This document shows, in pieces, positions 9,471 to 29,466 of a stretch of DNA of 64,000 nucleotides. The notes under the pieces were generated by a model, which searched no databases, was not told the DNA's origin, and worked only from the letters and a program-made list of their open reading frames with translations. Origin of the DNA: a virus (Duplodnaviria > Caudoviricetes); the IMG/VR virus record IMGVR_UViG_3300021295_000001, one strand, 5' to 3'. The position numbers and the translations under genes were made by a program. Numbering within the stretch: the stretch's first letter is position 1; each line of letters starts with the position of its first letter.

Positions 9471-9773
9471 GTGAAACTAAACGCCAAACAACTCACGGAA
9501 GCCTACGCCAAGCGCCTAAGCCTCACCGAGGCGGCTTACGCCAAGGCCCACAACGGCGCCACCCTTCCCGAGAACCTAAAGAACGCCACCGCTCAGTTAA
9601 TCTCCAACGCGAACACCCTCTTCAGGGAGTCCTTCGCCAACTCGACTGGAACCCAGTTGGGTGACATGGGCACCTTCAAGAAGTTCACCTTGGACATCAC
9701 CCAGGTCGCGCTCCCCAACCTCATCGCCCCCGAACTCGTCATCGTCCGTCCGATGGCCTCCCGCACTGGATTT
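9471..9773 (+). CDS. major capsid protein, exon 1
   Basis: AGGAG SD; ...LPNLIAPELVIVRPMASRTGF matches the gp23-type VQPM..PTG segment. Confidence 0.88.
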
Positions 9774-11017: not shown

Positions 11018-12082
11018 ATTCAGTACATCCAGTTCGTCGCTGGCTCCAACAAGGGCGGAATCCAACGCGGTGCCGTCTTCAACGACCCCTTCCACCTCGG
11101 CCCCATGACCGATGACAGGGTCGACTACACCGCCCAAGCCATCGCCGAGAACGTCGAACTCGACGCCCAAGGCAAGGCCACCCTCGCCTGGGCTCCCATC
11201 AGCGAGTCCTTCACCCCCGTCGTCGTCGGCCAGCCCTCCGCGGTCGTCACCGTCGTCGACGCCGCCACTGGCGAAATCTCCGTCGCTGGCGCCTCTGGCA
11301 CCGCCATCAAGGTCAAGTACCTCTATGACCAGGCCATCATCCCCGCCAACGACATCCCGACCCTCAACATGAGGGTAGAGGGCATCGCCCTCGAGGCCAA
11401 GCCCCGTCGCATCGCCATCTACTTCGACCAGATGGCCGCCTTCCAAGCGAAGACCGAGATGGGCATCGACCTCGGCGACGTCCTCGCCAAGCAGGCCGTC
11501 TCCGAACTCTCCTACGAAATCGACACCGAAATCGTGAAGTTGCTCGCCGAATCCGCCCCGACCGACGTCACCCTCCAGTTCAACAAGAGGATTCCCGTCG
11601 GCATCTCCATGGAACAGCACTACGAGGCCTTCGCCGAGACCATCGAGCGCGCTTCCCAAATCATCTACGACAGGACCCAGCGCTACCACGCCAACTACAT
11701 GGTCTGCGCGTCCAACGTCAAGCCCCTCCTCGCCCTCGTGAGGGGTTGGAAGGCCACTGGCGAAGCGACCCGCAACGGCCCGTACCTCGCTGGCACCCTC
11801 AACGGCCTCAAGGTCTTCGTCTCCCCCGCCATCGAGCCCAACAAGTGGTTCGTGGGCTTCAACGGCGACGACCTCATGACCTCGGCGGCCATCTACGCCC
11901 CCTATATGCTCATCGCCCCGACCGCGCTCCTCAACTTCGCGGATGGTGGCAACAGCCAGGGCTTTATGACCCTTTACGACCTAAAACTCCTCAACGACAA
12001 ACTCCTCGTCGCTGGTGAAATCATCAACGCCAAGGACGTCGAAGCGGTCCAGGTCGTCCCGACCGAAGACGTCGGCGAATAA
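11018..12082 (+). CDS. major capsid protein, exon 2 (spliced product about 455 aa, T4 gp23-like)
   Basis: IALEAKPRRI, LSYEIDTEI, AGTLNGLKVF, AAIYAPY motifs; strongly biased codon usage. Confidence 0.9.
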   Translation: MQYIQFVAGSNKGGIQRGAVFNDPFHLGPMTDDRVDYTAQAIAENVELDAQGKATLAWAPISESFTPVVVGQPSAVVTVVDAATGEISVAGASGTAIKVKYLYDQAIIPANDIPTLNMRVEGIALEAKPRRIAIYFDQMAAFQAKTEMGIDLGDVLAKQAVSELSYEIDTEIVKLLAESAPTDVTLQFNKRIPVGISMEQHYEAFAETIERASQIIYDRTQRYHANYMVCASNVKPLLALVRGWKATGEATRNGPYLAGTLNGLKVFVSPAIEPNKWFVGFNGDDLMTSAAIYAPYMLIAPTALLNFADGGNSQGFMTLYDLKLLNDKLLVAGEIINAKDVEAVQVVPTEDVGE

Positions 12083-13228: not shown

Positions 13229-14821
13229 ATGGACGTTGTGAATAAGGTCGGTCAGAAGGCGCGCGAGAAGGCGAACGCCGATTTGCTCGAGGCGATGTCG
13301 GGGCGCAGGGACGAGTTGTTCTCGTTCTACGATTCGCATTCGTACAAGGAGACGCTGGACGAGTTCGGCATACCGAGTTACAAGAGGCTCAGCGCGATAC
13401 TGAAGGCTCTTGGGTACGATTTCTCGCGGAAGAAGGGGAACAGCGTGCTCAAGGGGAAGCCGTCCCCGCGTAGCCACGAGAGTTACGTCGCTGGAGGCAG
13501 GAAGAGTTCCGAGACGCAAAGGGACGCGTGGGCGGGGAAAACGGACGAAGAGAAGGGGGAATGGTCCAAGAAGATGGCCGATTCCCATTCGTCCGAGGAG
13601 TACAAAGCGAGGAAATCGAAGGCGCAGAAGGAATGGTACGCATCGCTTTCCGACGATGACAAGAAGGAATACGCCCGCGTGCGTGGCGAAGGCTCCAAGG
13701 CTTGGTGGGATTCACTGACCGAGGACGAGAAGGCGGAGCAGGTGGCGAAGCACATGGAGGCTGGCGCTGGGTGGAACCACGAGAGGATAAGGCAAACCCT
13801 GCGCGATAGATACGGGGTTTCCAACGTGTCGCAAGTACCTTCCGTGAGCGCCAAGGCCGTCGAGGGGATGAGGAAGACGTGCCTTGAGAAATACGGGGTT
13901 GAGTGGAATTGCCAACTCGAGCAATGCAAGACGGCCATTGGGGCCAAATCGTCGAACACGAAGCCGAACGTGGAGTTCGCCACGCTTTTGGATTCCATGG
14001 GTATTGCGTACGAAAGGGAATTCAACCTCGGGAAATACATATACGACTTCAAGGTGGGCGACACGTTGGTCGAAATCAACCCGACCCCGACCCACAATTC
14101 CACGTGGAACCCCTTCGGAGGGGAACCGCTCGACAAACTCTACCACAAGGACAAACTGGCCAACGCCGAGAAGAACGGCTACAGGTGCGTCATGGTGTGG
14201 GACTGGGACGTGCCAGAGAAGGTGGCGTGGTCCCTGAAGGACGCCGAGGTCGTGTACGCCAGGAAATGCGAGGTCAGGGAAATCGGTATGGCGGAATGCT
14301 CCGAGTTCGTCAACAGGCACCATTTCCAGAACGACGCCCGTTGCTCCGTGCGACTGGGCCTGTTCCACGAAGGCGAGTTGGTAAGCGTGATGACGTTCGG
14401 GAAGCCGAGGTACAACGGGAACCACGAGTGGGAACTGATTAGGTACTGTTCGTCCAAGAAGGTAATCGGAGGGGCGAGCAAACTGTTCAGGCGCTTCGTG
14501 GCCGACCACGCGCCGAGGAGCATAGTAAGTTATTGCGACAGGTCCAAGTTCAAGGGTGACCTATACCCGAAACTCGGGTTCGCGCTGACGAAGAGGGGTA
14601 AGCCGTCGAAGCATTGGCACAGCATAAGGACTGGGGAGCACTACACGGACAACCTGCTCAGGCAACAGGGGTTCTCGAGGCTCGTGCACAGGACGGACGC
14701 GTCCAACGAGGATTTGGCGACGTCCGACAACGCGACCCTCATGCGCGAGGAGGGGTTCGCCGAGGTATGGGACTGCGGTCAGGACGTGTACGTTTGGGAA
14801 AACGGCACAAGCGACCGTTGA
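13229..14821 (+). CDS. putative Hef-like free-standing endonuclease (KYGV repeats, PD-(D/E)XK domain, C-terminal GNAT-like domain)
   Basis: TCLEKYGVE repeats; YDF...LVEIN; VYARKCEVREI...GGASKLF...SYCD. Confidence 0.7.
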   Translation: MDVVNKVGQKAREKANADLLEAMSGRRDELFSFYDSHSYKETLDEFGIPSYKRLSAILKALGYDFSRKKGNSVLKGKPSPRSHESYVAGGRKSSETQRDAWAGKTDEEKGEWSKKMADSHSSEEYKARKSKAQKEWYASLSDDDKKEYARVRGEGSKAWWDSLTEDEKAEQVAKHMEAGAGWNHERIRQTLRDRYGVSNVSQVPSVSAKAVEGMRKTCLEKYGVEWNCQLEQCKTAIGAKSSNTKPNVEFATLLDSMGIAYEREFNLGKYIYDFKVGDTLVEINPTPTHNSTWNPFGGEPLDKLYHKDKLANAEKNGYRCVMVWDWDVPEKVAWSLKDAEVVYARKCEVREIGMAECSEFVNRHHFQNDARCSVRLGLFHEGELVSVMTFGKPRYNGNHEWELIRYCSSKKVIGGASKLFRRFVADHAPRSIVSYCDRSKFKGDLYPKLGFALTKRGKPSKHWHSIRTGEHYTDNLLRQQGFSRLVHRTDASNEDLATSDNATLMREEGFAEVWDCGQDVYVWENGTSDR

Positions 14822-14852
14822 CATCGGGCCGAATCCGTGATAGCATATGGGC

Positions 14853-15053
14853 ATGGGAAAGAGGAAATCCAAAAAGGCGAATGTGCGGAAAACGCACGGT
14901 GGGAAGGTAATCGTGAGCGTGGACGTCTCTGGCGTGAAGGTCAGGGACGAGGTCCATTTGGCCATGATTGCCAAGACGAGGCCACACGTCGTCGCGGACA
15001 AACGCAGGAAGAAGTCCAAACACCCGAAGAGGGACATGGACGGTCTCTGCTAA
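14853..15053 (+). CDS. small basic protein
   Basis: TTGACA...TGATAGCAT promoter at 14818; K/R-rich. Confidence 0.6.
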   Translation: MGKRKSKKANVRKTHGGKVIVSVDVSGVKVRDEVHLAMIAKTRPHVVADKRRKKSKHPKRDMDGLC

Positions 15054-15061
15054 ATTGTCTG

Positions 15062-15820
15062 ATGGACAACGCTTTTTCAGGCGCTGGCAAGCGCAATACA
15101 AGAATGCACGTTAAACCCAAAGGGGTGAAGGACATGAAGGAATCTAAACGCAAGGGCAAGGTCATTTTCTTCGGCAAGGGCCAAGAGCGTGACGGGGTCA
15201 GGGAAGAGGTAATCGACGAGGCTGGCAAGAAACTGCCGTATGGCGTTCTGGCGTGGGGCCTCAACGAAATCATCTCTGGCATGAACGACGAGGAAGCCTA
15301 CTACGGCTCATGGCTTTACGTGTGGCCAGACGGCGCCACCCGCGAGGACGCCAACGACTCGTTCGGCACAAAGGAGGAATACCAGGAACTCGAGGACCTG
15401 TTCAAGAAGGTGTACAAGGCCTACCACAGGTCTGGGCTGTACAACGTGAGCGACAAGACGTTGGAACGCGCCCACGAATGGGATAGGAAACTCGGTCTGA
15501 CGCCAATCGCCGACGTCGGTAGGAAGGGCTCCGTCCAATCCAAGTTCGAGGACGGTACCGAGGAGAAAATCGGCGAGGTCCTCAAAGGCGTTGGGATAGG
15601 CGAAGAAGAATACGAAATCGAGGAGGAGCACGACGCTGGCGACGCCGAGCACCCATACAAGACCGTCTATTTCTTCGAAGACGAAGTAGCCAAGAAGGCG
15701 CTTAAGGCGCTCAGGGCATCCAACGCGTTCGTCACCGTCAAGGGTTACGAGGAGCCGTTCCCCGACGACGTGCACAGCGCCATCGAGATTCTGGTCAGCG
15801 CATACGATTACGGGAGGTGA
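15062..15820 (+). CDS. hypothetical protein (start uncertain, 15062 or 15134)
   Basis: Follows TGCTAAATT at 15048; typical codon usage. Confidence 0.65.
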   Translation: MDNAFSGAGKRNTRMHVKPKGVKDMKESKRKGKVIFFGKGQERDGVREEVIDEAGKKLPYGVLAWGLNEIISGMNDEEAYYGSWLYVWPDGATREDANDSFGTKEEYQELEDLFKKVYKAYHRSGLYNVSDKTLERAHEWDRKLGLTPIADVGRKGSVQSKFEDGTEEKIGEVLKGVGIGEEEYEIEEEHDAGDAEHPYKTVYFFEDEVAKKALKALRASNAFVTVKGYEEPFPDDVHSAIEILVSAYDYGR

Positions 15821-15826
15821 CGCGAC

Positions 15827-16357
15827 ATGGAAAGCGGATTCACCGTATACTACGATTTCGAATACAATGGATTCGAGGACAAGTTCTGGGACTACGAGGT
15901 GCCGATGGCAATCCTCGTGTCTGGCATTCGGGAATACTTCTCAAGGTACAACGTCGAACTCGACGGCACAGATTCCGCCATATGGAACTCCCTGCACGAC
16001 GTCGACGGCGCGCTGGACGAGATATTCGAGACCATGACCGAATGGTACGAGGACAAGTGCGAGAAACTCGCCTTCGAGAAATTCAAGGAGTACGCCGAAA
16101 GCGAACTCGAGTGGAAGGCCGAGCGCGAGGGTTTCGATGAGGACCTCGACGACGAGGAAGAGTCAGAGCGCGTAATCAAGACGAAGGTATTCGCAGATTA
16201 CGTTGAACGCCTGAAAGCAAACCATCCAGAGATGGGGCCATCCGAACTTTGGGCCTTGGCTCAGGAAAAGAACGACATCTACGAACCCGTGTTCTCCCGC
16301 GAGGAGATAGAGGAACACAAGCGCGCCGTGTTCGACGCGTTTGCGGAAGGCGAATAG
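15827..16357 (+). CDS. highly acidic hypothetical protein
   Basis: GGAGG SD; D/E-rich. Confidence 0.75.
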   Translation: MESGFTVYYDFEYNGFEDKFWDYEVPMAILVSGIREYFSRYNVELDGTDSAIWNSLHDVDGALDEIFETMTEWYEDKCEKLAFEKFKEYAESELEWKAEREGFDEDLDDEEESERVIKTKVFADYVERLKANHPEMGPSELWALAQEKNDIYEPVFSREEIEEHKRAVFDAFAEGE

Positions 16358-16358
16358 G

Positions 16359-16550
16359 ATGGACGGCCTCGAGATAGGCTCCGTCGTTATCATCTCCGAC
16401 CCAGACACCGTTTGGGACGGGAAGACTGGGGTCCTGAAGGGAATCGACGAATCGGCTGGCATCGCGCTGGTGTACGTCGACTTCCTGCCAGATAAGGGCA
16501 AGAAGGTCCTGCAATACTTCGAAACCGAAAAACTGGCGCCCGCCGAATGA
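16359..16550 (+). CDS. small KOW/SH3-like protein
   Basis: LEIGSVVII...WDGKTGVLKGID...VYVDF resembles a KOW motif. Confidence 0.55.
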   Translation: MDGLEIGSVVIISDPDTVWDGKTGVLKGIDESAGIALVYVDFLPDKGKKVLQYFETEKLAPAE

Positions 16551-16565
16551 GGCGCCTTTTTCTTT
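16535..16565 (+). terminator. intrinsic terminator
   Basis: GGCGCC...GGCGCCTTTTTCTTT. Confidence 0.55.
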
Positions 16566-16822
16566 ACGCGCATATTTACGCGCATACGCGCACGTGCGAT
16601 GTTCGAAGCGTTTTTGAATTGAAAACGAATCAAAAAACGAATGCTTATTCGAGCGCACTTATATTCATCATTCGTATATATAATACAGCGATGGAAAACG
16701 CAACCCCGCGGATTTCGTATAAAATCATCAGAAAGGGAAATCGTTTGAATAATTCCCCAAACCATATGGATAATCCCCTAAAACGCCTTGCATTTTGGGG
16801 GAATGTCGTTTACAATATGGCC

Positions 16823-17056
16823 ATGGGAAACGAAATGAAAACGTACGCACTGCCACTCGATGCGTCCGTCGTGATAGACTGTGGTGATTTCCACTATGAC
16901 TTCGTTTTGGGGGATAAGTCCGAAAAGCCTTGGTTCACCAAAGCGTCGACTCCGCGACGCGCCTACGTCAATTTCAAGAAGAGGATTGCGGAAATGGAGC
17001 GCACGTCCGTGTCGCGCGTGGACTTCGCCGTAACCGACATGGTCGAATGCGTGTGA
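16823..17056 (+). CDS. small hypothetical protein
   Basis: TTGCAT...TACAAT promoter directly upstream. Confidence 0.55.
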   Translation: MGNEMKTYALPLDASVVIDCGDFHYDFVLGDKSEKPWFTKASTPRRAYVNFKKRIAEMERTSVSRVDFAVTDMVECV

Positions 17057-17086
17057 AATACCCCGTCCGTTGCTAAATTCCATGAT

Positions 17087-20000
17087 ATGGTTGACGAAAA
17101 GGATTTTTTGGCGTTCACGGAAGACGACGTAGTCGATTACGCCGAGGTTTATGATTTGGATGAGGGGTTCGGCAAAGGCCCTTCTATTTTGATGCCCGAC
17201 GGAACCGTGTACGACCTGTCCCGCGCGTTCGAAACGCATTTCGGCTTCTTCGAGGTCGTGTTCCAGGGATTGCACGATTCCATATTGGACGAATACCCTG
17301 GCGACACTGACGTCGAGTACGAAGGCTATCTGTCCTACGACCAAGAGAAGATAATGTACCGCGCCGAGGCCGAATTGGGAATCATCACCCTGAACGTCGG
17401 CCTCACGTACAAGGAGCCGAGGGCCAAGGTCGTAATCCTCAGCAAACCGACGGAAGCGCAATACGGCGCGCTCACCGATTTCCTCGATTACGTTCAGCAA
17501 AAAGGCAAGAAGTCCGTCCTTTTCTTCATGGGCGACAAAATAGATTACGTCGAGTACCAGTTCGGAGAGGACCAAGGCACCGACGAAATCATCGACAAGG
17601 TCAGGAGGTATTTCGCCACTGGCAAGATAGTCGAGGCTCAATCGGCCGACGGCATGGCGTACGACGACGTCATCAAGGCCATCGAGGGGTCTGGCTTGTT
17701 CCCGATAACCGCGGACGCGGACGAGACTGGCTTCATCCTCCCAGACGGCAGGTTCCTGAACACGGCCGACAACGAATACGGGATGCCTTGGCACATGGCG
17801 GTCGAGGATTTCCTCGGCGACAAGGGATTGGCGAACGAGAAAGCCCGCGAAAGGTCCTCCGAAAACGACTCTGGCGACGGCTCCCCCACAATCGAGGCGT
17901 TCGGCGCCATAAGGGTAAGCGACGGCGAGGAATACATATGCCTACCGCCAGTGAGGCCGACCGAGCAGGCGTTCTCCGCCCTCGAGGGATGGTTGGCGAA
18001 GATGCACGACGAGCATAGCCTGCAGAGGGTGTACGCGTGCAATTACGAAGGCAATCAGGACGCGTTCTACGACATCGTCCCTGGTGAAGAGAAGGAAATA
18101 GTCGGCAAATTGCGCAGATATTACTCTTCGAACAGATTGATTGAATCCCCCAAAACCCTTAATTTGACAGAATATTTCGAAGAAGAGGACGGCCCGTGTT
18201 TCGTGACGAACGAGGCAAAGGAATTGGCTGATTATCTTAAACGCAAGATAAACGAAGGTCACGGTTCTTACAGGATAGTGCATTTCTACGACCAAGACGT
18301 ATACGCTGTAGCGTCTAGTTACTCCATGGTGCACTACTGGCTTGATTACAACACCAGAAAACAGATGTACGTCGACGGCAACGAGTTCGGCGCTAGGTTA
18401 ATGGCCTATCCGATAGGGGCCAGCGACGACGACAACGTGGACTATTATGACTGCGAGAACAAGGTGTATGAATTCGGCGATTGTGGCATAAAGGTGGCCG
18501 TGATAGGCGACTTCCCCGAGGATTTCGAGAAGACAACGCTATGCAAAGCACTGGGTCCGATAACTAGAAAATACGAATTCGAGAAGGACGACAGCGACAA
18601 ATACGAGAGTATGCGCCTTCCTCACGCAACAGACTTGGGCAAGCCCAAGGAATCGCATGACAAGCAAAACGAACTGACCGAGGCCAAGGATGACGAACTT
18701 AAATTCAAGGATTGGTTGGACTCCGCATACGAAGCCGTCGGATATCAGTGGAGCGACCCGATGTTGGACATTTCCTATGAAATGAGGAGCGCCGATTCTT
18801 GCTTTGATGAGTTCCAAGATTACAGGCGCAGAAACAAAGGCAGGCAAACCGATTACTATTATTGGATGGGTCAAGAACCGAGTATGTTCTTCTCCTTTCT
18901 GGCAAGAAGCATAAGAAAAAAATCGAGCAAAGCCAATGTGAAAAAGGAAGCGGAGGCTGGGGCCGAGTCCGTATACGACGGGAAATTTTGGCGTGTGTAC
19001 AAAATAAACACGTACGAGGCGTCGTGCCATTATGGCAAAGGCACCACGTGGTGCATATCGGAATACGATGACGATTATTGGGACGAATATGCTGAAAAAG
19101 GCATCACATTTTATTTCCTTCTCCCTAAAGACGGGAAAAAATACATGAAGTATGCCATAGGAATCGACCGCAACGGGCATGTTCAGATGATATTCGACCA
19201 AGAGGATTGCAATGTTGAAGGAGTGCCGAACGTACCAGACATACCCGAATTGAGAGAAGTTAGAGATGCCATGGGCTTGGATTTCCATGTGTATTTCAAC
19301 ATGGACGAAGAATTCAGCACATATGACAACTTCAGGGACGCATGGTACGCTGGCGTGAACTGGCCCGAGATGCTATGGTTCCTTTCCGAGGACGAGGAAG
19401 AAATAAAGCGCATAATGCATGACGACCTACGTATGGACGATGTGGAGGTTGTCGAATCCCTAACCGAGGCCAAAGCGGACGTCGATAAGTTCAAGGCTTG
19501 GCTCGCCGACGGGATAAGGGGAAGCAATTTCTCCGAGCCTAATGCCGATGAGGTGGCCAAAGGGTACGCCGATTTCTTCGTGGCAAACAAAAACAGACTC
19601 AAATCCCCGCAGAACGATTTCTATTATTGGATGAAGAAACCGTTCGGGGAATTCGTGTCCTTCATAAGCGACCTCAAGAGAAAGGACGACGAAAAGTCAT
19701 TGTCCAAGTCAAAGGAGGACGAAGGCTCAAAACTCGTGTACGAGGATGAGGATTGGTTTGTGTACGAGATAACCAATTACGAGGCCTCGAAGAAATATGG
19801 CGCCAATACAAAATGGTGCATTTCTGGCTCCAAGCGATGGAACAACGGGGAGAACGGAAGGAAGTTTTTCGACGAATACGCCAGCAAAGGCATCAGGTTT
19901 TTCTTCTTCATCGACAGGAAGGGTGGCAGGAAGTACGCGTTCACCGCTTATCCAGAGGCGTTGGGGGACGACGCCTACGAGATTTACAATGACATGGACG

Positions 20001-22414
20001 TTAGGGTTCCGTTCATCCCTAACGCCCCAGCCGTCGACGAATTGTTGGCCATGTACGGCAAAGACAACGCTTTCTACGGTTCCGTGCAGGACGTGAGGCT
20101 GGAACTGAAATTGGCCCTTGCGGAAGGCAATTACAGCCCAAGCACCCTAAAATGGATTGTCGACGATTATCAATTGAATTACGGAGGAGAGGAAGAGTTC
20201 CTCATCGCCACCGACAAATACCAATTGGTAAACGAATTGGATTGGCTTATACCCGATGAGTATTTGGAGTGGGAGCGTTCCTATGAAGAGGCTGAGGCTT
20301 CCCACAAAGACGACGGCGATGACTCAAATTCCTACTCGGCGTACTGGGACGGCGATTTCTGTCAGATAAGCAACTGGGACGAAATCCCTGGTTGGAGAAA
20401 CGGAAAGGAATACGTAACGGACCCCGCGCATTGGAAGGACGGCATGTACCTATTGTCCCCAACTGGGTACGATGGATTGGAACTTACGATTGAGCCCACG
20501 GACGTCAAGGACGCGGTCATGGTGATATCGTCGTATTACGGACCTGATTTTTTGGCCGACGTTTCACTTGACCTGATGGATGCCGTGAGAAGCGGGGAGT
20601 ATGACGCCAAAAAAGTTGCCGAGGACCTAGGAATGTCCAAGGAAGCGACGGATGCGCTCATAAAATACTCAAAAGAAAAGCACGAGGGTTTGGAACTCAC
20701 CGAAGCAAAGGCGGACCAAGACGCCTTCGTCGACAAATTCGGTCAGGACCTTTTCGACCTGTTCCAGAAATCCAAGGACAGGCTAAAGAACGCCAAGGTC
20801 TCAACCGACATGACTTGGCACGTTAAGAACACGGACCCCAAGGACATGAGGCAGATGCTATACAACCTACGCTCCAAGTCTGTGAAGACTGACGGGGAAG
20901 GCAAGGCGGACCTCACCAAGATACCAGGGAAATACAAATACCTTGGCTCAAAGGGCGGTTATGACGTATACGAGCCTTTGGACGTGGATGCATCCATGGC
21001 GCTCGGCGTGGGCTCTGGTTGGTGCACCACTGGAAGGTACGGGCACGCTGGGGACCTCAATTTCAAACCGTCGCGCGAAGACGCCGAGGAGCATTGGGAC
21101 GAGTATGAGGAAAAGGGGATAAGTTTATTCTACTTCCTGCGAGACGGCGTGGCGAAATACGCGATTGCACTTCACCCAATTACGTATGAAATAAACCAAT
21201 GGATAGGGAAAGATTATCTTCGCAAAACCAACGTCGAGGTATTCAATCAGAATGACGAACAAGATTATGATGCCCTGAAATACCTGCCTTTGGACATCCT
21301 CGACGACGACATCGTTTTCGATGTGGACGAGCACGAGGATGGCTTGGCTTTGTCCGAGGATGGAAGGACCGTGCTACAGGCTAACGAAAACGTCGTCTCC
21401 GTGACCATCCCCGAGGGCGTCACCTCCATCGACGACTATGCCTTCTCTCATTGCTCCTATCTGACATCGGTAGTCATCCCTTCTTCCGTCGCATCTATTG
21501 GTGAGTCGGCATTCCTAGGTTGCTCATCCCTCGCCTCGATTGTCATTCCCTCATCCGTCACTTCCATCGGCGAAGAAGCCTTCGCGGACTGTTCATCTCT
21601 CATCTTGATTACCATCCCCTCATCGGTAACCTCCATCGGGGATTACGCCTTCGAAGGATGCCTCTCCCTTAAATCTGTGACCATCGGAAACAGGTCTTGC
21701 GAAATAGGGGAAAGTGCATTCCCCCAAAAAACGAAGATAATATACGCTGAAACAGAGTCGCTAAAGGAATCTCACGAAACGGTGTGCTACGTCCTTCCCG
21801 ACGGAAGCACCATGCACGGAACCGACCATTTCCTAATGGATTTGGAAATCGGCGACGTGGACGACGAAATGCAAAGCGAGACCGCCAAGTCGTTCGTGAG
21901 GGTGAGGCTCAATTCGTACATCAACTCCCTCACGTTCCCATCGCATGGAATCACCGACGCGCAGGAGGCCAAGGTGAGGGAACTCCTCAATGGGGCGGAC
22001 TTGGAAGGTAAGACAATAGAGGCAAACACATACGATGGCAAATGGTATCCGAGGATGAAGGCCACTGACGAAGTGGCCGACCAAGTCCTGAACTCATACA
22101 AGAGGCATCTGCTAGGCATAAGCGAATCCAGTCGGTCGGTTGACACAGCCAACCAAGGTGGTATAATAGTGTTACGCGAGGGAAACCACATGCAACACAC
22201 CAAAAGGGAATTACGCAAGATGATAGACTGCCTCAATGAGGCGGAACTCAACGAGAGGATTGACGAACTCAAGGCCAAGGTCCTGAGGATGGTCGAATCC
22301 GACAATTCGGACTATTCCGACGACGCGTTCATGCTCAATTACGCTAGGATGGTCCGCGCCAGGGACTACAGGCCCGAAACGCTAAAGGACGGGAGTTGGA
22401 TGTATGGAGAATGA
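17087..22414 (+). CDS. 1775-aa modular (polyvalent-like) protein: 3 LPDG modules, 3 WC(I/T) modules, BspA-type LRRs
   Basis: Internal repeats visible in the translation; modules delimited by IVEA, LIES/LTEY, LTEAK x3, LKES, ISES. Confidence 0.85.
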   Translation: MVDEKDFLAFTEDDVVDYAEVYDLDEGFGKGPSILMPDGTVYDLSRAFETHFGFFEVVFQGLHDSILDEYPGDTDVEYEGYLSYDQEKIMYRAEAELGIITLNVGLTYKEPRAKVVILSKPTEAQYGALTDFLDYVQQKGKKSVLFFMGDKIDYVEYQFGEDQGTDEIIDKVRRYFATGKIVEAQSADGMAYDDVIKAIEGSGLFPITADADETGFILPDGRFLNTADNEYGMPWHMAVEDFLGDKGLANEKARERSSENDSGDGSPTIEAFGAIRVSDGEEYICLPPVRPTEQAFSALEGWLAKMHDEHSLQRVYACNYEGNQDAFYDIVPGEEKEIVGKLRRYYSSNRLIESPKTLNLTEYFEEEDGPCFVTNEAKELADYLKRKINEGHGSYRIVHFYDQDVYAVASSYSMVHYWLDYNTRKQMYVDGNEFGARLMAYPIGASDDDNVDYYDCENKVYEFGDCGIKVAVIGDFPEDFEKTTLCKALGPITRKYEFEKDDSDKYESMRLPHATDLGKPKESHDKQNELTEAKDDELKFKDWLDSAYEAVGYQWSDPMLDISYEMRSADSCFDEFQDYRRRNKGRQTDYYYWMGQEPSMFFSFLARSIRKKSSKANVKKEAEAGAESVYDGKFWRVYKINTYEASCHYGKGTTWCISEYDDDYWDEYAEKGITFYFLLPKDGKKYMKYAIGIDRNGHVQMIFDQEDCNVEGVPNVPDIPELREVRDAMGLDFHVYFNMDEEFSTYDNFRDAWYAGVNWPEMLWFLSEDEEEIKRIMHDDLRMDDVEVVESLTEAKADVDKFKAWLADGIRGSNFSEPNADEVAKGYADFFVANKNRLKSPQNDFYYWMKKPFGEFVSFISDLKRKDDEKSLSKSKEDEGSKLVYEDEDWFVYEITNYEASKKYGANTKWCISGSKRWNNGENGRKFFDEYASKGIRFFFFIDRKGGRKYAFTAYPEALGDDAYEIYNDMDVRVPFIPNAPAVDELLAMYGKDNAFYGSVQDVRLELKLALAEGNYSPSTLKWIVDDYQLNYGGEEEFLIATDKYQLVNELDWLIPDEYLEWERSYEEAEASHKDDGDDSNSYSAYWDGDFCQISNWDEIPGWRNGKEYVTDPAHWKDGMYLLSPTGYDGLELTIEPTDVKDAVMVISSYYGPDFLADVSLDLMDAVRSGEYDAKKVAEDLGMSKEATDALIKYSKEKHEGLELTEAKADQDAFVDKFGQDLFDLFQKSKDRLKNAKVSTDMTWHVKNTDPKDMRQMLYNLRSKSVKTDGEGKADLTKIPGKYKYLGSKGGYDVYEPLDVDASMALGVGSGWCTTGRYGHAGDLNFKPSREDAEEHWDEYEEKGISLFYFLRDGVAKYAIALHPITYEINQWIGKDYLRKTNVEVFNQNDEQDYDALKYLPLDILDDDIVFDVDEHEDGLALSEDGRTVLQANENVVSVTIPEGVTSIDDYAFSHCSYLTSVVIPSSVASIGESAFLGCSSLASIVIPSSVTSIGEEAFADCSSLILITIPSSVTSIGDYAFEGCLSLKSVTIGNRSCEIGESAFPQKTKIIYAETESLKESHETVCYVLPDGSTMHGTDHFLMDLEIGDVDDEMQSETAKSFVRVRLNSYINSLTFPSHGITDAQEAKVRELLNGADLEGKTIEANTYDGKWYPRMKATDEVADQVLNSYKRHLLGISESSRSVDTANQGGIIVLREGNHMQHTKRELRKMIDCLNEAELNERIDELKAKVLRMVESDNSDYSDDAFMLNYARMVRARDYRPETLKDGSWMYGE
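21392..21724 (+). repeat. BspA/LRR_5 leucine-rich repeats (23-aa unit, 4-5 copies)
   Basis: IPSSVTSIGxxAFxxCSSL repeats. Confidence 0.9.
22140..22167 (+). promoter_or_regulatory. consensus sigma70 promoter inside the 3' end of the giant ORF
   Basis: TTGACA-16 nt-(TGG)TATAAT followed by GAGGG SD and in-frame ATG at 22190. Confidence 0.7.
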
Positions 22415-24407
22415 GATGAATAACCCCTTCCCGAAGGAATGGCAATTGTGGAAGATAGTCGTGCCCAACGAGCATAAGGACGACCCAGAGGACCCGAAGC
22501 GCAGGCCAGTCATACTGACCGAGACGTGGGTCGACGAAGGGGAGGACGACGAGAACCTCGACGAATACTACCCCAGTTTCGCCGTCGGGACCACGCAGGT
22601 CGAGCGCTACCAATACGAGCCAGACACGTTCGTTTTCGACGCCCCCGAGCAGTTGGAGGCGTACAAACTTTCCAAACCCACCATATTCAGATTCGGGAAG
22701 TCCGAGGGAAAATTCACCGAGGACCTCACTCTCAAGGATTTCATCGAGAAGGGTGAATACGTCGCCGACATCACGCCAGAGGACAAGGCCCGCATAAAGA
22801 GGTCCCTTAACAACAAGGTGGGACGCTCCACCCTTTTGCACGACGGGCTCCTGAAGGAATCCGCCGTCACCGACGATTCCATCGACTACCTTAGGGATTG
22901 GTTGCAATTGGGCAAGGAACCCCACATGAAGGGATTCGACGCCGACGCCAAGAAGGCGTTCATCGTGTTCCCGACAGGGGTGGACGTCGAGGACCTAAAG
23001 TCCAAAAGCGGAATCGGAACTTGGCTCGACGAGCACGGTTTCGATTGGAAGGCCGAGAAGACCGACTACACCTACAAAACGGTCGGGTCCTTCAACACGA
23101 GGACCATGAGCAAATCTGGCGCTGGTCGCGACAGGACGCTCAAGGACAGGGTCAGGCTCGACGTATCTTGGGGCGACGACGGCCTCAACGAGGACATCGA
23201 GGTCCACGACGAACTCAATCCGAAACTCTTCGACGGGGACGAACTCAAACCAGAGGTCAAGGAAGCCGTCAGGAACATCGCCGACGCGTTCATGGAAGGG
23301 TTGGCCGAGGATGGCATAAAGTTCAACCTCAAGGACATCGTCCTCATCGGCTCCAACGTGAACTACAACTACAACAAGGACAGCGATTTGGACATCCACC
23401 TAATCGCCGATTCGTCTGGATTGGAATGCCCAGACGAACTGTACCCGCTCCTATATTCCGCCTACCGTAGCATCTTCAACAAGAACTACGAGATAACCAT
23501 CAAGGGAATCCCCGCCGAGATTTACGTGGAGATGGACGAACCGCAGGGAAGGTCCAACGGCGTATACTCAATCAACGACGGTTGGGTCAAGAAGCCCGAG
23601 CGCAGGGAAATCCCCGAAATAGACATGGAGGCATTCGAAAAACTCTTCTCCGAGTGGGAGGACAGGTACTTCGAGGTCAAGAAGGAGGCCGAGGAGGAAC
23701 TCGCTTCGCGCGAGCATCCGCTCGACGAGTCCTTGATAACCGAGGGAACAACGTCGGCCGACGTCTACGACTTCGTGGAGGACGTATACGACCTGCGTAA
23801 GGAATCCATCGCCAAGGACGGCGAGTTCGGATTGGGCAACCTCGTTTTCAAGCAGATGCGCGCCCTCGGTTACCTCGACGAACTGAAGGAACTTATAAGG
23901 CAACTTAAGTCGAAGGAACTGTCGCTAGAGAACCTAAGCGAATCGGCCGAGGGGAAATCCGAAGTCGAGGAACTGTTCTGGAACATCAGGGACGAGGACG
24001 ACAAGGTAGCGGTCGCAATCCTCGACAAGCACAACGGGAAGAACATAATGTACGACGCGAAGAAGGACAAGATAGTGCCCGTTCCCAAATCCAAAACCAA
24101 GAACCGCTTCGCCGTCACAAGGGAGCAACTGAGGGACGGCGTGTTGGCCTCAGAGGAGGAGATGCGCTCGTTCATGAAGGAAGTCGGAGGCGACGAAATC
24201 GTGTTCTACGCCGACAGGGACAACCTTTGGGGCGGTGAGTACAGCGTCATAACCAAAGACGAGGAAAAGGCCCGCAAAGCCTGCGCGAAATACAATCAGG
24301 ACGGATACGCCGTCTTCAATTCGAAGGGCGATTACGAGATGTCCCGCGACAGAAACGGCGAGAGAATCAGGGAGAAACCAGTTGACAAAGCCTCCGAACC
24401 CGAGTAA
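22404..24407 (+). CDS. multidomain protein with a Pol-beta-superfamily nucleotidyltransferase domain and a possible PemK-like N-terminus
   Basis: LIGSNVNYNY..DSDLDIH (GS...DxD) motif; KRRPVIL in the N-terminus; LKES, LNED, ESLITEG, LSES linkers. Confidence 0.75.
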   Translation: MENEMNNPFPKEWQLWKIVVPNEHKDDPEDPKRRPVILTETWVDEGEDDENLDEYYPSFAVGTTQVERYQYEPDTFVFDAPEQLEAYKLSKPTIFRFGKSEGKFTEDLTLKDFIEKGEYVADITPEDKARIKRSLNNKVGRSTLLHDGLLKESAVTDDSIDYLRDWLQLGKEPHMKGFDADAKKAFIVFPTGVDVEDLKSKSGIGTWLDEHGFDWKAEKTDYTYKTVGSFNTRTMSKSGAGRDRTLKDRVRLDVSWGDDGLNEDIEVHDELNPKLFDGDELKPEVKEAVRNIADAFMEGLAEDGIKFNLKDIVLIGSNVNYNYNKDSDLDIHLIADSSGLECPDELYPLLYSAYRSIFNKNYEITIKGIPAEIYVEMDEPQGRSNGVYSINDGWVKKPERREIPEIDMEAFEKLFSEWEDRYFEVKKEAEEELASREHPLDESLITEGTTSADVYDFVEDVYDLRKESIAKDGEFGLGNLVFKQMRALGYLDELKELIRQLKSKELSLENLSESAEGKSEVEELFWNIRDEDDKVAVAILDKHNGKNIMYDAKKDKIVPVPKSKTKNRFAVTREQLRDGVLASEEEMRSFMKEVGGDEIVFYADRDNLWGGEYSVITKDEEKARKACAKYNQDGYAVFNSKGDYEMSRDRNGERIREKPVDKASEPE

Positions 24408-24433
24408 TATATAAGGGCATGGAGGAAAAACCA

Positions 24434-24748
24434 ATGGCAAAAGAAGAATTCGACGCAATCAACAACTCGCAATACAAGGAAGCAATCGCCAAGTACTTCG
24501 ATTACTCGTTCGACTTCGCCTTCCTGGACATCGTCGCCAGAATCATCGACAGGGTCGAGGACTTCTCAGACACCGAGGAAATCTACGAGGCGATGGACTC
24601 CGCGCTAATCTACACCGAGGACCAGTGGAGGGTCATGATGCATTATCAAACCCCGAGCGAGGCCGACTTCGGGACCGCCTGCGAATACCTTCTGTCTGAC
24701 GTGGAGGCCATCTGCGAGCACATCGCGGAAGCCTCCGACGAGGCCTGA
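24434..24748 (+). CDS. small acidic protein, possible Ocr-like DNA mimic
   Basis: TTGACA promoter at 24382, GGAGG SD; about a quarter of residues D/E; IYEAMDSALIYTEDQWRVM pattern. Confidence 0.6.
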   Translation: MAKEEFDAINNSQYKEAIAKYFDYSFDFAFLDIVARIIDRVEDFSDTEEIYEAMDSALIYTEDQWRVMMHYQTPSEADFGTACEYLLSDVEAICEHIAEASDEA

Positions 24749-24794
24749 TTCACGAAACCGCAAAAACGCGCGAATCGTAATGCTAAATTATAAG

Positions 24795-26025
24795 CCCCGC
24801 CCAAAAGGCGTGAAAACGGCGCCCCGCACCCAGTGTTCGGGAACGCAGTATAATAAGGGTGTCCGACGCGGATTCGTCCGCCTCGGGTCCGATTCGGATT
24901 CGTCCGATTCGGGACTGACGATGACCCAACGTCGTTAACCAGGGTCGTGACGGCGGAACCCCATCAACGGGGTCCGCACGTCGAACTGAGCGGTGCATCG
25001 CTCGAAGCGGGTCGGCCCGCGAACAAACTTGCACACCCCATCGGGAGGGTCGACTCCTTCCGTATGAACGCGGGGATATGACGGGACCCCGTAGGCGCGG
25101 TCAAAACCGCGGTTCCCAGACGGCTTCGTCTGGGAGGGGAAGGAAAACCCCGAAAACCAAAGCGCCGAGCGATAACCACGTTAGAGCCGTGGGCTCTCCG
25201 CATCCAGATACGGTACGGGGAGCGCTGGTTGTAGCGCGTCTCGGCACTCACGACCGCCACGTCGTTAAACTGCCAACGGTGGCTTCGGGTTCGATTCCCG
25301 AACCGTCCTGATAGACAATATCTGGGCGGTGAAGTATGGGCAGGTTGCCACAGTCCACCGTTAAACGTCTTGGAGGCGAGACGTTAAATCCCTTCCCGAG
25401 CAGCAAGGCACTCGTTAAAAGAGTCTTTCAGTACAGCGTGGGCAGGAGTTAGTCCCGTTCCTTATAACCGTGGAACGCACGAAAGAGGTCGCCAACATCG
25501 GCGACCGCAAGTAATGGTCGGCAATGATTCGCCGATGGGCAAAACACCCTTAATGTGCCCTCACCCTTTAACGGAACATGGATAGGCTCGGGAGGACCCG
25601 CGCGGGGCCATTGAAGGACCTTCTGGTTGAAAGGCGGACGGACCGCGCAATTAAGGTGGGTTTTCGGGAGAATAGGAACCAGCGAGAACATCCCGACGTC
25701 CTAATGTGTCAGACCAACGCGGTGCACCGCTAACCTGACCGCATTGGGACGTTAAACATCCTAACGCGACGCCCAGCAATGGGCTATGCCAAGGGACCGC
25801 ATCGCGGTGGGTATGGCCACGACGCACCGACGGACCCCGTATTCGGGGACCGACTCGGCAGTCATAATGTGTGGCCCTTGGCCCACCCAATGGCGCACGC
25901 GGTTCGGCGAGTCGCGATTCTGGGAAACGTGCGCCACAACGGTTGCTCCCCCGTGGCAGTCAACCGACAGACGGGTCCACAAAAACCCTTCGAAGGTAAG
26001 CGCCCAAAAGGCGCTTTTCCTTTTG
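24795..26025 (+). ncRNA. candidate giant structured non-coding RNA (about 1.2 kb)
   Basis: No phage-like ORF; TGCTAAATT at 24781 and terminator at 25998-26025; dense hairpins, UUCG loops, a T-arm, 5 copies of CGTTAAA. Confidence 0.7.
25998..26025 (+). terminator. intrinsic terminator
   Basis: AAGCGCC-CAAAA-GGCGCTTTTCCTTTT. Confidence 0.75.
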
Positions 26026-26070
26026 TTTGGTGCTAAATTCACTGATATTGCCCTAGGGTTATTGTTCAGC

Positions 26071-26781
26071 ATGGATTTGAAGGATTACATCTCAAACATA
26101 AAACTCGAATTGACTGGCGGTTTGCTTGAGTTGGAGATTGACGACGAAGTGATAGCGAAGGTCGTCAACCAATCGCTCAGGGAGGTCCAAAGGTACATAG
26201 ACGAATCCAGGTTCATAGAGGTACCTTTCGCCAGTTGCATCGACATCGCTGGGTTCAAATGCTCGGCGATAAAGAAGGTGTACAGGGTAAGCCCCATAGG
26301 GGGCGCGGTGTCTGGCTCGTCCAGCGCCATAGACCCGATGTACGCGCAGACGTGGGCCCTGTACGGGATAAACAACGCGACGTACAACATAACGCAATTC
26401 GCCTACAACTACGCGTCGTACAACACCGTCCTCCAAATAAGGAACTCCCTGTCGACAGACCTGGCGTTCAGGATGGACAAGCAGGGTGAGAAACTGTACG
26501 TCAACGTATCTGGCAACTACCCCGAGAGAATCGTGATTGAGTACATCCCCATATTCGAGGACGTTTCCGAGGTCAAGGACGCCTATTGGATTGACATACT
26601 CCAGAGGCTGTCCCTCGCCATGACGAAGAGGATTCTGGGCAGGGTCAGGACCAGGTTCACCCAATCCAACGCCCTTTGGCAACAGGACGGCGAGACCATG
26701 CTCGAGGAGGGCAACAGGGAACTGTCCGAGATAAGGGAGATACTGAGGACCAATTCCTCGTTGTTCTACCCGATAGATTGA
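26071..26781 (+). CDS. neck/head-tail adaptor protein (T4 gp13-like)
   Basis: IKLELTG...ELEIDD; WIDILQRLSLAMTKRILGRVR..F...DGETMLEEG pattern; position. Confidence 0.75.
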   Translation: MDLKDYISNIKLELTGGLLELEIDDEVIAKVVNQSLREVQRYIDESRFIEVPFASCIDIAGFKCSAIKKVYRVSPIGGAVSGSSSAIDPMYAQTWALYGINNATYNITQFAYNYASYNTVLQIRNSLSTDLAFRMDKQGEKLYVNVSGNYPERIVIEYIPIFEDVSEVKDAYWIDILQRLSLAMTKRILGRVRTRFTQSNALWQQDGETMLEEGNRELSEIREILRTNSSLFYPID

Positions 26782-26820
26782 CGCGATATAATAATAAATA
26801 ATAATAAAAGGAGTCGCAAA

Positions 26821-29466
26821 ATGGCCGAAAAAAGCAGACTGGAGATGTTAGCCTCCAAACTAAACAGGAAACGCGAGGAACTAAACCGCGCTGGTTTTCA
26901 CGTCGAAGGGACAAGCGACATGGACGTCACGTCGAATTTCAACGACGTGATGCCGTTCGTGGCGGTTTACGAGAGCACGGTGATGTCGGAGTTCCCAGAA
27001 CTCGGCTCCATCGACGAGGCCCTATGCGGACACGACCTCTTCACCGAAATGACCGAGAACGGCCTTGATGACAAGACCGCGATAGAATTCATCACGGAGA
27101 CGATTGGGAAGGCGCTTGGGTCGGACGAAGACGACGAAGAACACGTTGGCGAATCCTCGCTGACGGAGGGTGCTTCCAACTTCCACGGGGACGGTGGCGC
27201 CGAATGGTTGCCTTTATTGGTCTTCATGTCTGACGAAGAGGTATGGGACAAAATCAAATACTATGCCGAGCAGGAATACGTCGGCCACGAGGATGAGCAG
27301 GATTGGGACGAGTTCCTCCAGGAATTCGCCGACGAGCACTACGACGAATACTCGCAAGGCGTCTGCGTCTTGGACGACGACGAGATTAAGGCCCTCGAGG
27401 AGAAGATTGACGAGTTCAACTACGAAATTCACAGGCAAGGCGAGTCCATCACTGGTACCGAGGAATACGACGACGGCGACATACTGAAGAACTCCGAGAC
27501 CGAGATTAAGGGCGGTTATTACGAGGGCTATCAGATTTTCACCGAGTTCCAGTACAAGGACGACGAGAACCTATCCGAGGAACTCAGGAAGCCGTTCCAG
27601 GATTTCTACGCGGAAATCAAAAAGGAATTCGGTTTGACCGAACTTTCCGTCGCCTACAAGGCGTCCAACGGGGAGACTGGCTACAGAATCGTCGAGGAGG
27701 CCCGCGACGAAGCCAAGCGCAACCACAGACTCGGAGAATGCGACAAAGTCAAGGAATCCGTGAGTTGGTCCTATTTCGACAAATTCGACCCCATATTCGA
27801 CCAATACCTTCCCGATTACGGGGAGGGCGACGACATGGCCACCCAAGCGGTGACCGCCGTGTGCAAACTCGTTTACAAGTGGTACAACGACGGCGACGTT
27901 TTCGACAACGTCATGCAGAGGTCCATCGTCGGGTTCGGCAACGACCTGGCGTCATACGCGAACTGGCTTTACCACAACGTCCCCGAGACCAGGAAAATCC
28001 TCACGGGAATCAAAAAGGTTAGGAAGGACGGGGATTACGAGGACCTACTCCAAAAATTGGCCGACGCCGTTTTGGACGCCGAAAAACTCGATGGCCTCAG
28101 CCAAAGGAAAAAGGAAGGCTCCGTGTACGAAGGCGACTTCCCGTTCTCATACGAGTTCCGTAGCGAAAGCGAATACGACGAATCTCTTCACGAAGACGAT
28201 GACGAAATCGAGGAAGACGATGAACCTTGGGTTGGATATAAGATTTCCACACCAGATTTTCCAGATTCGGAAGATGTGTATTTCGACGATTTAGAAGAAG
28301 CGAAAAAGGCATTTGATAAACTCATCGACGAAGGAACAAAGCAAGTAAGACTGTATGCAGTTCAGGAGGCGGAATTTTCATATGGCGAGGACATCGAGGA
28401 ATTGTTGTTCTCTTATGACGACGATGACGAAGACGAATCCATCAAGGAGTCCAGTAAGGACTACTACGAATACCCCGCTGGCTCTGGTTGCCACGTAAGG
28501 GAGACCGAATCCAAATTCGTCGCCATAGGCAAAAACGGGGAGACAATCGGCGAATCCGACACCAAGGCTGGAGCCGAGGCCCTAATCGACGCCCAATGCA
28601 AGGAATGCGTTAATGAGGACACCGTGAAGCAGGGTGGCCACTGGGTCAACAAAGGCAAGGAAGGCACCCACGGAAAGTTCAGGACCAAGAAGCAGGCCGA
28701 CGCCCAGCGCAAGGCCATGTTCGCCAACGGATACAAGGAATCCACTGACCTTGGGGAAGGTGTTAAATACCACGATTTCTTGGACGATAAGGAAAAGATG
28801 AGGGATTTCAAAAAACTATCAAAGAGTGATTTCCTTAAATCGTATTCCTATCTGACGGAACTTGAATACGACCTTACCGCTAAAGCGCTTAAAGACAAAA
28901 ATAAAGCCAACGAATCCGCCGACTTGGGAGAATCCAAGAATAGCGATAACCCGTATCTTAAGAACACCCGCATCAAACTCGGCAAAGGCGAGCACGTCAA
29001 CAAAAACGCTGGCGACCCAGTCAAGAACATGCAGGCCTTCAACCACGCCATGGGCGAAGGAATCGACGCCGAAGCCGAACCAGAAGGCGAGTGCGACCAC
29101 GATTGCGAGGCTTCCATGCTCTCCAACGAGTTCAGCAAAAACGTCAAGGACGAATGGGACGCCATCGAGGGATACAACATCCTCAAAACGGAGATAGAGG
29201 CGTCGAGCCTCACCGACGAGGAGAAGGCCAAACTGGTCGCCATCGTCGACGACATCCGCGGTGAGGAATACAGGCACGTTGGCCAATTGGAGACCGCCGT
29301 CAAGACGGTCGCCCCGCAGGCCGACGACATAGAGAAGGGCAAGGAGGAGGCCGACGGGCAGGAAGCGTCCGCCGAGCATCACGAAGAGCCCGAGGAACAC
29401 GCTGAGGAAATCGCCTCCGAAGAGGAGGAGACCATCGTGGAGCCCAAGGAGGGAGAAGGCGAATAG
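26821..29466 (+). CDS. 881-aa acidic modular protein with a C-terminal ferritin-like helix pair
   Basis: AAGGAG SD; many ES.L.E linkers; DEWDAIEGY...DIRGEEYRHVGQL. Confidence 0.8.
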   Translation: MAEKSRLEMLASKLNRKREELNRAGFHVEGTSDMDVTSNFNDVMPFVAVYESTVMSEFPELGSIDEALCGHDLFTEMTENGLDDKTAIEFITETIGKALGSDEDDEEHVGESSLTEGASNFHGDGGAEWLPLLVFMSDEEVWDKIKYYAEQEYVGHEDEQDWDEFLQEFADEHYDEYSQGVCVLDDDEIKALEEKIDEFNYEIHRQGESITGTEEYDDGDILKNSETEIKGGYYEGYQIFTEFQYKDDENLSEELRKPFQDFYAEIKKEFGLTELSVAYKASNGETGYRIVEEARDEAKRNHRLGECDKVKESVSWSYFDKFDPIFDQYLPDYGEGDDMATQAVTAVCKLVYKWYNDGDVFDNVMQRSIVGFGNDLASYANWLYHNVPETRKILTGIKKVRKDGDYEDLLQKLADAVLDAEKLDGLSQRKKEGSVYEGDFPFSYEFRSESEYDESLHEDDDEIEEDDEPWVGYKISTPDFPDSEDVYFDDLEEAKKAFDKLIDEGTKQVRLYAVQEAEFSYGEDIEELLFSYDDDDEDESIKESSKDYYEYPAGSGCHVRETESKFVAIGKNGETIGESDTKAGAEALIDAQCKECVNEDTVKQGGHWVNKGKEGTHGKFRTKKQADAQRKAMFANGYKESTDLGEGVKYHDFLDDKEKMRDFKKLSKSDFLKSYSYLTELEYDLTAKALKDKNKANESADLGESKNSDNPYLKNTRIKLGKGEHVNKNAGDPVKNMQAFNHAMGEGIDAEAEPEGECDHDCEASMLSNEFSKNVKDEWDAIEGYNILKTEIEASSLTDEEKAKLVAIVDDIRGEEYRHVGQLETAVKTVAPQADDIEKGKEEADGQEASAEHHEEPEEHAEEIASEEEETIVEPKEGEGE

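Follow-up and report, generated by a model that had tools for sequence, protein, structure and literature searches.

Non-coding RNAs that are both large and intricately folded are rare; GOLLD and ROOL are among the few examples from phages. GOLLD, according to its original description, reportedly accumulates as RNA during infection. The pRNA of the phi29 family, 120–174 nucleotides (nt) long, is essential, is expressed early from the genome end and serves in head assembly, and its four-base loop–loop pairing covaries between phages. Here we analyse positions 24781–26025 of a 64,000-nt stretch of DNA (the window) from the IMG/VR virus record IMGVR_UViG_3300021295_000001, just upstream of a gene for a T4 gp13-like neck protein (hereafter gp13). 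This region is very probably a free-standing gene for a non-coding RNA of ~1.23 kb, carried as an optional cassette at a hotspot and lying outside the described families. It represents a new family within a known but small kind, the large ornate phage RNAs, and adds to the examples above one that is unlike them.

ROOL is a large, hairpin-rich non-coding RNA encoded as a free-standing gene and found in rumen metagenomes, phages and prophages (Weinberg et al. 2017, PMC5737381), and GOLLD is a structured RNA of ~800 nt from phages and prophages (PMC5737381; 10.1101/2024.12.08.627333). Both form homo-oligomeric RNA-only cages, as seen by cryogenic electron microscopy (10.1101/2024.12.08.627333), and both often adjoin transfer RNA (tRNA) genes in phages or prophages (PMC5737381; 10.1101/2024.12.08.627333). 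A comparative prediction of structured RNAs in IMG/VR phage contigs found some upstream of structural genes; its candidates averaged 67 nt, and at least 3 distinct regions were required (Fremin et al. 2023, PMC10690425). With one lineage of the present RNA in IMG/VR, it was probably beyond the reach of that prediction.

Like ROOL, the RNA of the window is large and hairpin-rich and belongs to a free-standing gene of a rumen phage; unlike ROOL, it is about twice as long and modular, has no adjoining tRNA, shows other conserved motifs and does not match the family model. With GOLLD it shares its very large size, structure and phage-borne location, and it differs in lacking a model match and a tRNA association, and in host range and G+C. 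Like pRNA, it is phage-encoded, lies in the head/neck module and has a predicted four-base covarying loop–loop pairing, whereas its length of ~1.2 kb, the lack of a model match and its absence from most relatives set it apart.

These differences were assessed with cmscan against all 4227 families of Rfam 15, applied to the whole window at gathering scores and to 24500–26300 at E values up to 10. No family matches the region (E up to 10) or its homologues (E up to 1), the lone permissive row in the region being a chance hit to a human long non-coding RNA model (E = 5). ROOL (RF03087) has no match at the gathering score in the window and none in 24500–26300 or in the homologues, and GOLLD likewise is not recovered, none of the 4227 families having matched the region. 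The tRNA neighbourhood of these two families is also missing: ARAGORN found no tRNA or transfer-messenger RNA in the window, and it is a different insert, in the relative L001, that does carry a tRNA. For a phi29-type pRNA there is no model match, and most relatives are without any insert before gp13. The sole intron match lies at 9764–10036, and the region itself is intergenic between complete open reading frames (ORFs). Without an Rfam match to the region or its homologues, the RNA is not GOLLD, ROOL, pRNA or an intron. A first-pass annotation of the window, made from sequence alone, had proposed either a divergent member of GOLLD/ROOL or a new class of large structured non-coding RNA. The former does not hold, for want of a covariance-model match; the latter does, given RNA depth, conservation, compensatory changes and the empty Rfam search, which also returned no full-length family match that would remove its novelty.

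Coding capacity, boundaries and RNA of the region

Every long ORF of the window lies on the plus strand, and 24781–26025 is its sole long plus-strand coding gap. The gap, of 1.3 kb, sits between an ORF of 109 amino acids (aa; 24419–24748) and the neck gene (26071–26781), and no ORF longer than 105 aa is found on either strand within 24749–26070. Plus-strand frames of at least 75 aa are missing solely at 25312–25733 and at one 204-nt spot elsewhere in the window. The small ORFs of the region gave no Pfam match (E up to 1) and no protein similarity in any frame, and the G+C of 24781–26025 is 0.59–0.64, against ~0.50–0.56 in the flanks. The region has no coding capacity, as is general for genes of structured non-coding RNAs, and the ORF listing on both strands bears out the earlier remark that this is the only long stretch without a phage-like ORF.

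Signals in the same orientation frame the region:

24781–24789, plus strand: promoter-like TGCTAAATT ahead of the RNA, an over-represented motif
24797–24812, plus strand: 5′-proximal hairpin with CGCCCAAAAGGCG, a 13-mer identical to that of the terminator
25998–26025 (hairpin 25998–26016), plus strand: intrinsic terminator, AAGCGCC-CAAAA-GGCGCUU and a U-run (in the DNA, hairpin then T-run)
26031–26039, plus strand: second TGCTAAATT copy, ahead of the neck gene

The motif TGCTAAATT occurs 13 times in the window, on the plus strand only, with 0.27 copies expected (at 2916, 7828, 12139, 13180, 15048, 17071, 24781, 26031, 32766, 34671, 42117, 51776 and 54124). The neck gene, the sheath gene and others have a copy 15–60 nt ahead of their start, and TGCTAAA lies ~40–50 nt ahead of gp13 in most relatives; the motif would correspond to an extended −10 element (TGnTAAATT). 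The copy at 24781 opens the gap and has no ORF behind it. Late expression of the RNA is suggested only by this promoter motif, which it shares with virion genes. Five bases separate the end of the terminator from the next copy of the motif (26031), and two of the homologous loci described below (L006 and L014) have a terminator at the equivalent place. The sole internal repeat of the region joins its two ends, 24798–24810 being identical to 26001–26013 (CGCCCAAAAGGCG, in the small 5′ hairpin and in the terminator loop). Motif counts and terminator confirm the first-pass reading that the region begins after the motif at 24781 and ends at a terminator before the one at 26031; that it is a transcription unit of its own is supported by these signals and by depth in RNA libraries. 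Transcription would run along the plus strand from the TGCTAAATT copy, starting near 24796, to the terminator at 25998–26025. Some copies of the motif begin merely 15–16 nt before a start codon; if TGCTAAATT is a −10 element, this spacing implies leaderless or nearly leaderless messenger RNAs (mRNAs).

The stretch is contained in 15 RNA-labelled public runs. Depth was compared across 22500–28500 in one DNA run (X3) and in three RNA runs with three different study codes (X4, X5 and X6); runs with only 0.2–0.4 of the words were excluded as evidence.

X3 (DNA): depth 24–29 throughout 22500–28500, region included; flat
X4 (RNA): flanks 432 and 627; 25009–25520 at 15647, 25491–25606 at 24564
X6 (RNA): flanks 1119 (left) and 111 (right); 25414–25606 at 13709, 25577–25679 at 20000–25000
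X5 (RNA, thin library): flanks with one 252-nt scrap at depth 2.2; a single contig, 24810–25977, at depth 14.3

In the RNA runs of two studies (X4 and X6), parts of the region stand at 12–225 times the flank depth, and the DNA run is flat. Peak RNA depth covers the conserved core defined below (25414–25679 at 13700–25000 in X6). The RNA unitigs match the window exactly along their full length, window-specific sequence included, so the excess is not a sum across related phages, and the tenfold difference between the flanks of X6 argues for RNA, not contaminating DNA, in that library. A transcript of the region is present, as expected of any non-coding RNA gene, and its excess over the flanks is moderately strong evidence. 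The RNA, or a stable piece centred on its core, would accumulate far above the neighbouring mRNAs.

The single contig of X5 supports a primary transcript covering almost the whole predicted unit, which would consist of two parts, one specific to this phage and one common to two other lineages:

24796–25230 (~430 nt), plus strand: hairpin-rich, phage-specific 5′ domain, covered by the X5 contig (24810–25977) and by X4 (25009–25520 at 15647)
25231–25997, plus strand: module A, whose homologues are RNAs without ORFs in L006/L051 and L014 (nhmmer, 2.7e-21 to L006; alignments)

There is a real possibility, if not the favoured one, that the functional RNA is instead one or more shorter stable RNAs of ~270–650 nt, centred on 25009–25680 and cut from a precursor, or two RNAs made together, one resembling the type B RNA described below and the other module A. 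The unitigs of top depth span only 25009–25606 in X4 and 25414–25679 in X6. Adapter-tagged ends occur at 25038, 25443 and 25679, with a start at 25491, and two runs show a snap-back at 25606, all of which suggests processing or plentiful short fragments. Conservation, too, peaks at 25399–25700, and there are relatives that have A or B alone. Against shorter RNAs stand the unbroken X5 contig and the lack of a terminator between the two parts, and unitig breaks and adapter ends can be artefacts of assembly or library. The most abundant and most conserved part of the ~1.23-kb unit is a core of ~270–650 nt.

Homologues and predicted fold of module A

Searches with the neck protein and with one neighbouring protein brought up some 40 relatives, and the related contigs come from gut or rumen metagenomes of cattle, sheep and other animals. 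Most of these relatives have merely 50–130 nt ahead of gp13. Two other phage lineages have homologous RNAs at the same place, ahead of the T4 gp13-like neck gene: module A is carried by L006, L017, L051 and L052 in RNAs of ~800 nt and by L014 in one of ~620 nt. The window aligns with L006/L051 and L014 across ~770 nt, and the length differences between the lineages are not multiples of three. L051 is a 98% variant of L006, and L015/L016 a 96.5% variant of window positions 25410–26070.

Across the three lineages, a 27/28-nt run (25425–25452) and a 12-nt run (25539–25550) are invariant. Third-codon identity of gp13 among the same lineages is just 0.44–0.52, that is, synonymous sites are near saturation, and invariant runs beside such a gene count against a functionless region. 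These runs belong to a core for which the following features are predicted:

25399–25700 (~300 nt), plus strand: conserved core, with invariant blocks 25417–25452 and 25539–25566 and the block 25612–25682
25456–25477, plus strand: hairpin P1, stem CGUUCC/GGAACG and conserved loop UUAUAACCGU; five of six pairs changed on both sides
25440–25560, plus strand: helix Hd, GGGCA (25440–25444) with UGCCC (25556–25560), enclosing P1 and an insert
25487–25535, plus strand: two extra hairpins between P1 and block 2, in this phage only and not in L006, L051 or L014
25617–25621/25658–25662, plus strand: helix Hc, closing pair G-U, A-U or U-A
25623–25628/25677–25682, plus strand: helix Ha, CUGGUU/AACCAG versus CCGAUU/AAUCGG
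25634–25637/25643–25646, plus strand: helix Hb, GCGG/CCGC versus GCAG/CUGC
25468–25471 with 25638–25641, plus strand: loop–loop contact between P1 (loop CCGU) and Hb (loop ACGG), with the compensated change to CUGU and ACAG in L006 and L051

The core would fold into at least five helices and a four-base loop–loop contact, which may form within one molecule or between molecules. The P1 stem is replaced by ACGCAC/GUGCGU in L006 and by CGCAUCG/CGAUGCG in L014, with the loop UUAUAACYGU kept. Hd reads GAGCA/UGCUC in L014, a compensated change, and has one mismatch in L006 that is not shared by L051; in Ha, Hb and Hc every cell pairs. Within the extra hairpins, the L015 variant changes C25519 to U and keeps the pair as U-G. 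Counting the loop–loop contact, the six helices comprise 26 pairs, of which 99.2% are paired and 7 changed on both sides, a number that falls to 0–1 when partners are slid by 1–3 columns; in the alignment of the covariance model R1, compensation is seen at 6 of 11 pairs. Covariation supports the helices, as is general for structured RNAs, and the homologues, whose collection the first-pass annotation had called for, show compensatory changes in six helices across three lineages. Hc contains invariant U-G and G-U pairs, which together with the orientation of motif and terminator favour the plus strand. The 19 substitutions between L015 and the window, scored on a single-sequence minimum-free-energy fold only, favour neither outcome.

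A recurring element consists of a short hairpin with CGU at the end of its 3′ arm and UAAAC behind it. It is found at 24933, 25263 and 25382 and less clearly at 25359, 25413 and 25750, and L006 and L014 have it at two equivalent positions. The heptamer CGTTAAA is not enriched in the whole window (8 copies, 8.5 expected), yet 6 of the 8 fall inside the 1.25-kb region. A further hairpin, UUCGGG-UUCGAUU-CCCGAA (25284–25302), resembles a tRNA T-arm with its T-loop; ARAGORN made no tRNA call there.

All seven hairpins of the first-pass annotation are found in the sequence. Its two long-range complements also exist in the window but are not conserved in the homologous RNAs: in L006 as in L014, ACACCCTTA lacks a partner and ATTAAGG/CCTTAAT is broken, so these pairings probably lie outside the conserved fold. 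Other complements of 10–13 bp inside the window mostly join look-alike hairpins and have no conserved counterpart. A separate complement, GUGCUCCCU with AGGGAGCGC, is present in L006.

It is improbable that the region is transcribed but functionless, be it the decayed remains of a gene or of a mobile element, or filler DNA that recombination brought in at a hotspot. Such an origin would suit an insert that is optional among relatives, exceeds the genome in G+C and has a 5′ domain without homologue, in a window where selfish elements occur elsewhere too (the group I intron and the intein-like domain described below). It fits poorly with invariant runs beside saturated synonymous sites, compensated helices, a strong RNA excess over the flanks and the lack of protein similarity in any frame.

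The site ahead of the neck gene

The neck gene opens the next unit:

26031–26781, plus strand: next transcription unit, TGCTAAATT followed by the T4 gp13-like neck gene at 26071–26781 (PF26809 Phage_T4_gp13 on homologues; phrog_211 head-tail adaptor)

Besides the neck protein, the window encodes a T4 gp21-like prohead protease and a tail sheath. Among cultured phages, the neck protein comes closest to those of large Firmicutes myoviruses, at just 26–30% identity, and the phage is an uncultured myovirus of the ruminant gut.

The cassette appears to be optional: just upstream of the neck gene, relatives carry the same RNA, an RNA of ~400 nt, other inserts or nothing. The ~400-nt RNA, type B, is unrelated to module A and occupies the same site (L057:383–790, L056:1494–1648, and L050:2892–3103 joined to L013:1–275). 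Its two lineages, at 59% identity, share 63 predicted pairs, 17 of them compensated (RNAalifold z = −7 versus column shuffles), and it has no match in Rfam, in phage records (blastn, 50,697 records) or in IMG/VR. AT-rich, ORF-free inserts also occur there, of 2.37 kb at L001:9832–12200 (= L027) and of 1.4 kb at L020:1665–3067 (= L021). They have TTGTATAAT promoters and conserved blocks in common (alifold z −3.5), a tRNA lies inside the L001 insert at 12008–12073, and they are probably further non-coding RNAs, related to each other and not to that of the window. With different non-coding inserts before the neck gene in different relatives, the site is a hotspot for cassettes, and we read the RNA of the window as one optional, modular cassette among them.

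Part of the 5′ domain recalls type B:

25019–25091, plus strand: type B-like segment, GCGAACAAAC followed by the hairpin CGGGG-AUAUGACGGGA-CCCCG (25071–25091), with features shared with type B

The motif GGATATN2-3GGGACC occurs once in the window (0.02 expected) and, among 64 loci, is otherwise confined to type B (L057 and L013); the stems under the GGAUAU..GGGACC loop are compensated (CGGGG/CCCCG, CGCGG/CCGCG and CACGG/CCGTG). The nhmmer profile of type B has no significant match in the window, and what the two have in common is one 15-nt loop motif and the compensated stem. It is likely, if unproven, that the RNA combines a B-like piece with module A as a mosaic.

The inserts of L006 and L014 follow a coiled-coil-like ORF of 111–113 aa with a sigma-70-like promoter, which has no copy in the window and is found elsewhere without any RNA. 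The leader of the 111-aa ORF of L014 (1939–1990) gave a sub-threshold match to the Rfam motif cow-rumen-4 (26 bits, E 0.95; not significant).

Wider searches added no copies. All loci were searched with nhmmer profiles for A and for B, with a fuzzy motif and with covariance model R1, and neither the AT-rich relatives nor any others yielded a copy. Four conserved-block patterns recovered from IMG/VR one known contig only and two chance matches in terminase-like coding sequence, a pattern scan of bacterial and archaeal genomes gave four matches, all local chance ones of 20–30 nt, and blastn of the region against the 50,697 phage records gave no match.

Two apparent inserts were rejected. The 2.5-kb gap after the small-ORF homologue of L054/L055 is a tRNA array instead, with many tandem tRNA-like genes identified by eye at L054:4760–6970 (= L055). 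The apparent ORF-free gap of L009, of 2.4 kb (L009:1359–4300, = L046), consists of coding sequence in which in-frame TGA is plentiful, within a repeated tt-TGA-ac.gatgg pattern; TGA apparently encodes tryptophan in this phage lineage.

The position directly upstream of gp13 would also suit a cis-acting leader or attenuator of gp13 or of the downstream operon. This is very unlikely, because a terminator and a second full promoter motif lie between the RNA and gp13 and relatives without the RNA keep the same promoter–gp13 layout; moreover, the depth of X6 drops from >13000 to 111 at the right boundary.

Highly improbable, in turn, is a strongly diverged ROOL, GOLLD, phi29-type pRNA or group I/II intron. 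Rumen origin, phage context, size and ornate hairpins do recall ROOL and GOLLD, and the covarying four-base loop–loop contact and head/neck position recall pRNA. Yet covariance models match neither the region (E up to 10) nor the homologues (E up to 1), the window has no tRNA, the RNA lies between genes with no flanking exons, and, unlike pRNA, it is optional. A DNA-level element (replication origin, packaging or recombination site) with hairpins acting in the DNA, to which the dense inverted repeats and head-module position might point, is hardly credible for a region framed by promoter and terminator, with an excess specific to RNA libraries beside a flat DNA run and with conserved G-U pairs that become A-C mismatches on the opposite strand.

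Several points weigh against a free-standing gene for the whole ~1.23-kb RNA. The covariation comes from three lineages, and the helices were picked post hoc from the very sequences scored, which inflates the counts; RNAalifold on a plain MAFFT alignment of the core equals column shuffles (z = 0.1), partly because stems are out of register in that alignment. Each Logan contig carries one depth and reveals no strand or true ends, and RNA libraries may contain DNA. As no terminator is evident behind the upstream gene, read-through from it could add to the transcript. The 5′ domain has no alignable homologue, L006 and L014 having their 111–113-aa ORF there. Module A is known from three lineages and two near-identical variants only, and its RNA, absent from most relatives, is not essential.

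Possible function and other elements of the window

As to function, we tentatively consider a stable trans-acting scaffold or decoy RNA that would act late in infection. Its partner would be a protein of host or phage, or further copies of itself, and contact would be made through the conserved single-stranded blocks, the loop–loop contact and the repeated short hairpin and UUAAAC elements. The excess over mRNAs, conserved unpaired blocks, loop–loop contact and repeated hairpins fit a stable trans-acting RNA, and an accessory role, perhaps tied to particular hosts or defences, would agree with its absence from most relatives.

More speculatively, and doubtful as it stands, the RNA may be the founding member of a group of exchangeable, highly expressed late phage RNAs at the head–neck junction, with a physical role in virion assembly or host take-over. 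Such RNAs could self-assemble into particles joined via the covarying loop–loop contact, or serve as decoys whose hairpin–UUAAAC elements sequester a host defence or RNA-binding protein; modules A and B and the AT-rich inserts would then be swapped among phages as counter-defence cassettes. That one site holds different, unrelated RNAs suggests an exchange of RNA cassettes like that of protein accessory genes, which, if true, would extend what is known of the accessory functions of phages. The family is approachable by experiment, offering a metatranscriptome excess, a defined core of ~300 nt, a covarying contact and natural relatives with and without the RNA.

Elsewhere in the window, the sole match at gathering score is a group I intron at 9764–10036 (RF00028; full-length model, 83 bits), shortly behind the gene for the prohead protease. 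It starts at the end of a 101-aa ORF (9471–9776) and has a 284-aa helix-turn-helix ORF (10138–10992) behind it. The intron probably interrupts a head gene and brings with it a gene resembling those of homing endonucleases. An 818-aa ORF (2954–5410) contains an intein-like Hint domain at residues 212–362 (Pfam Intein_splicing, 8e-08, below the curated cut-off), which would be a second selfish element of this phage.

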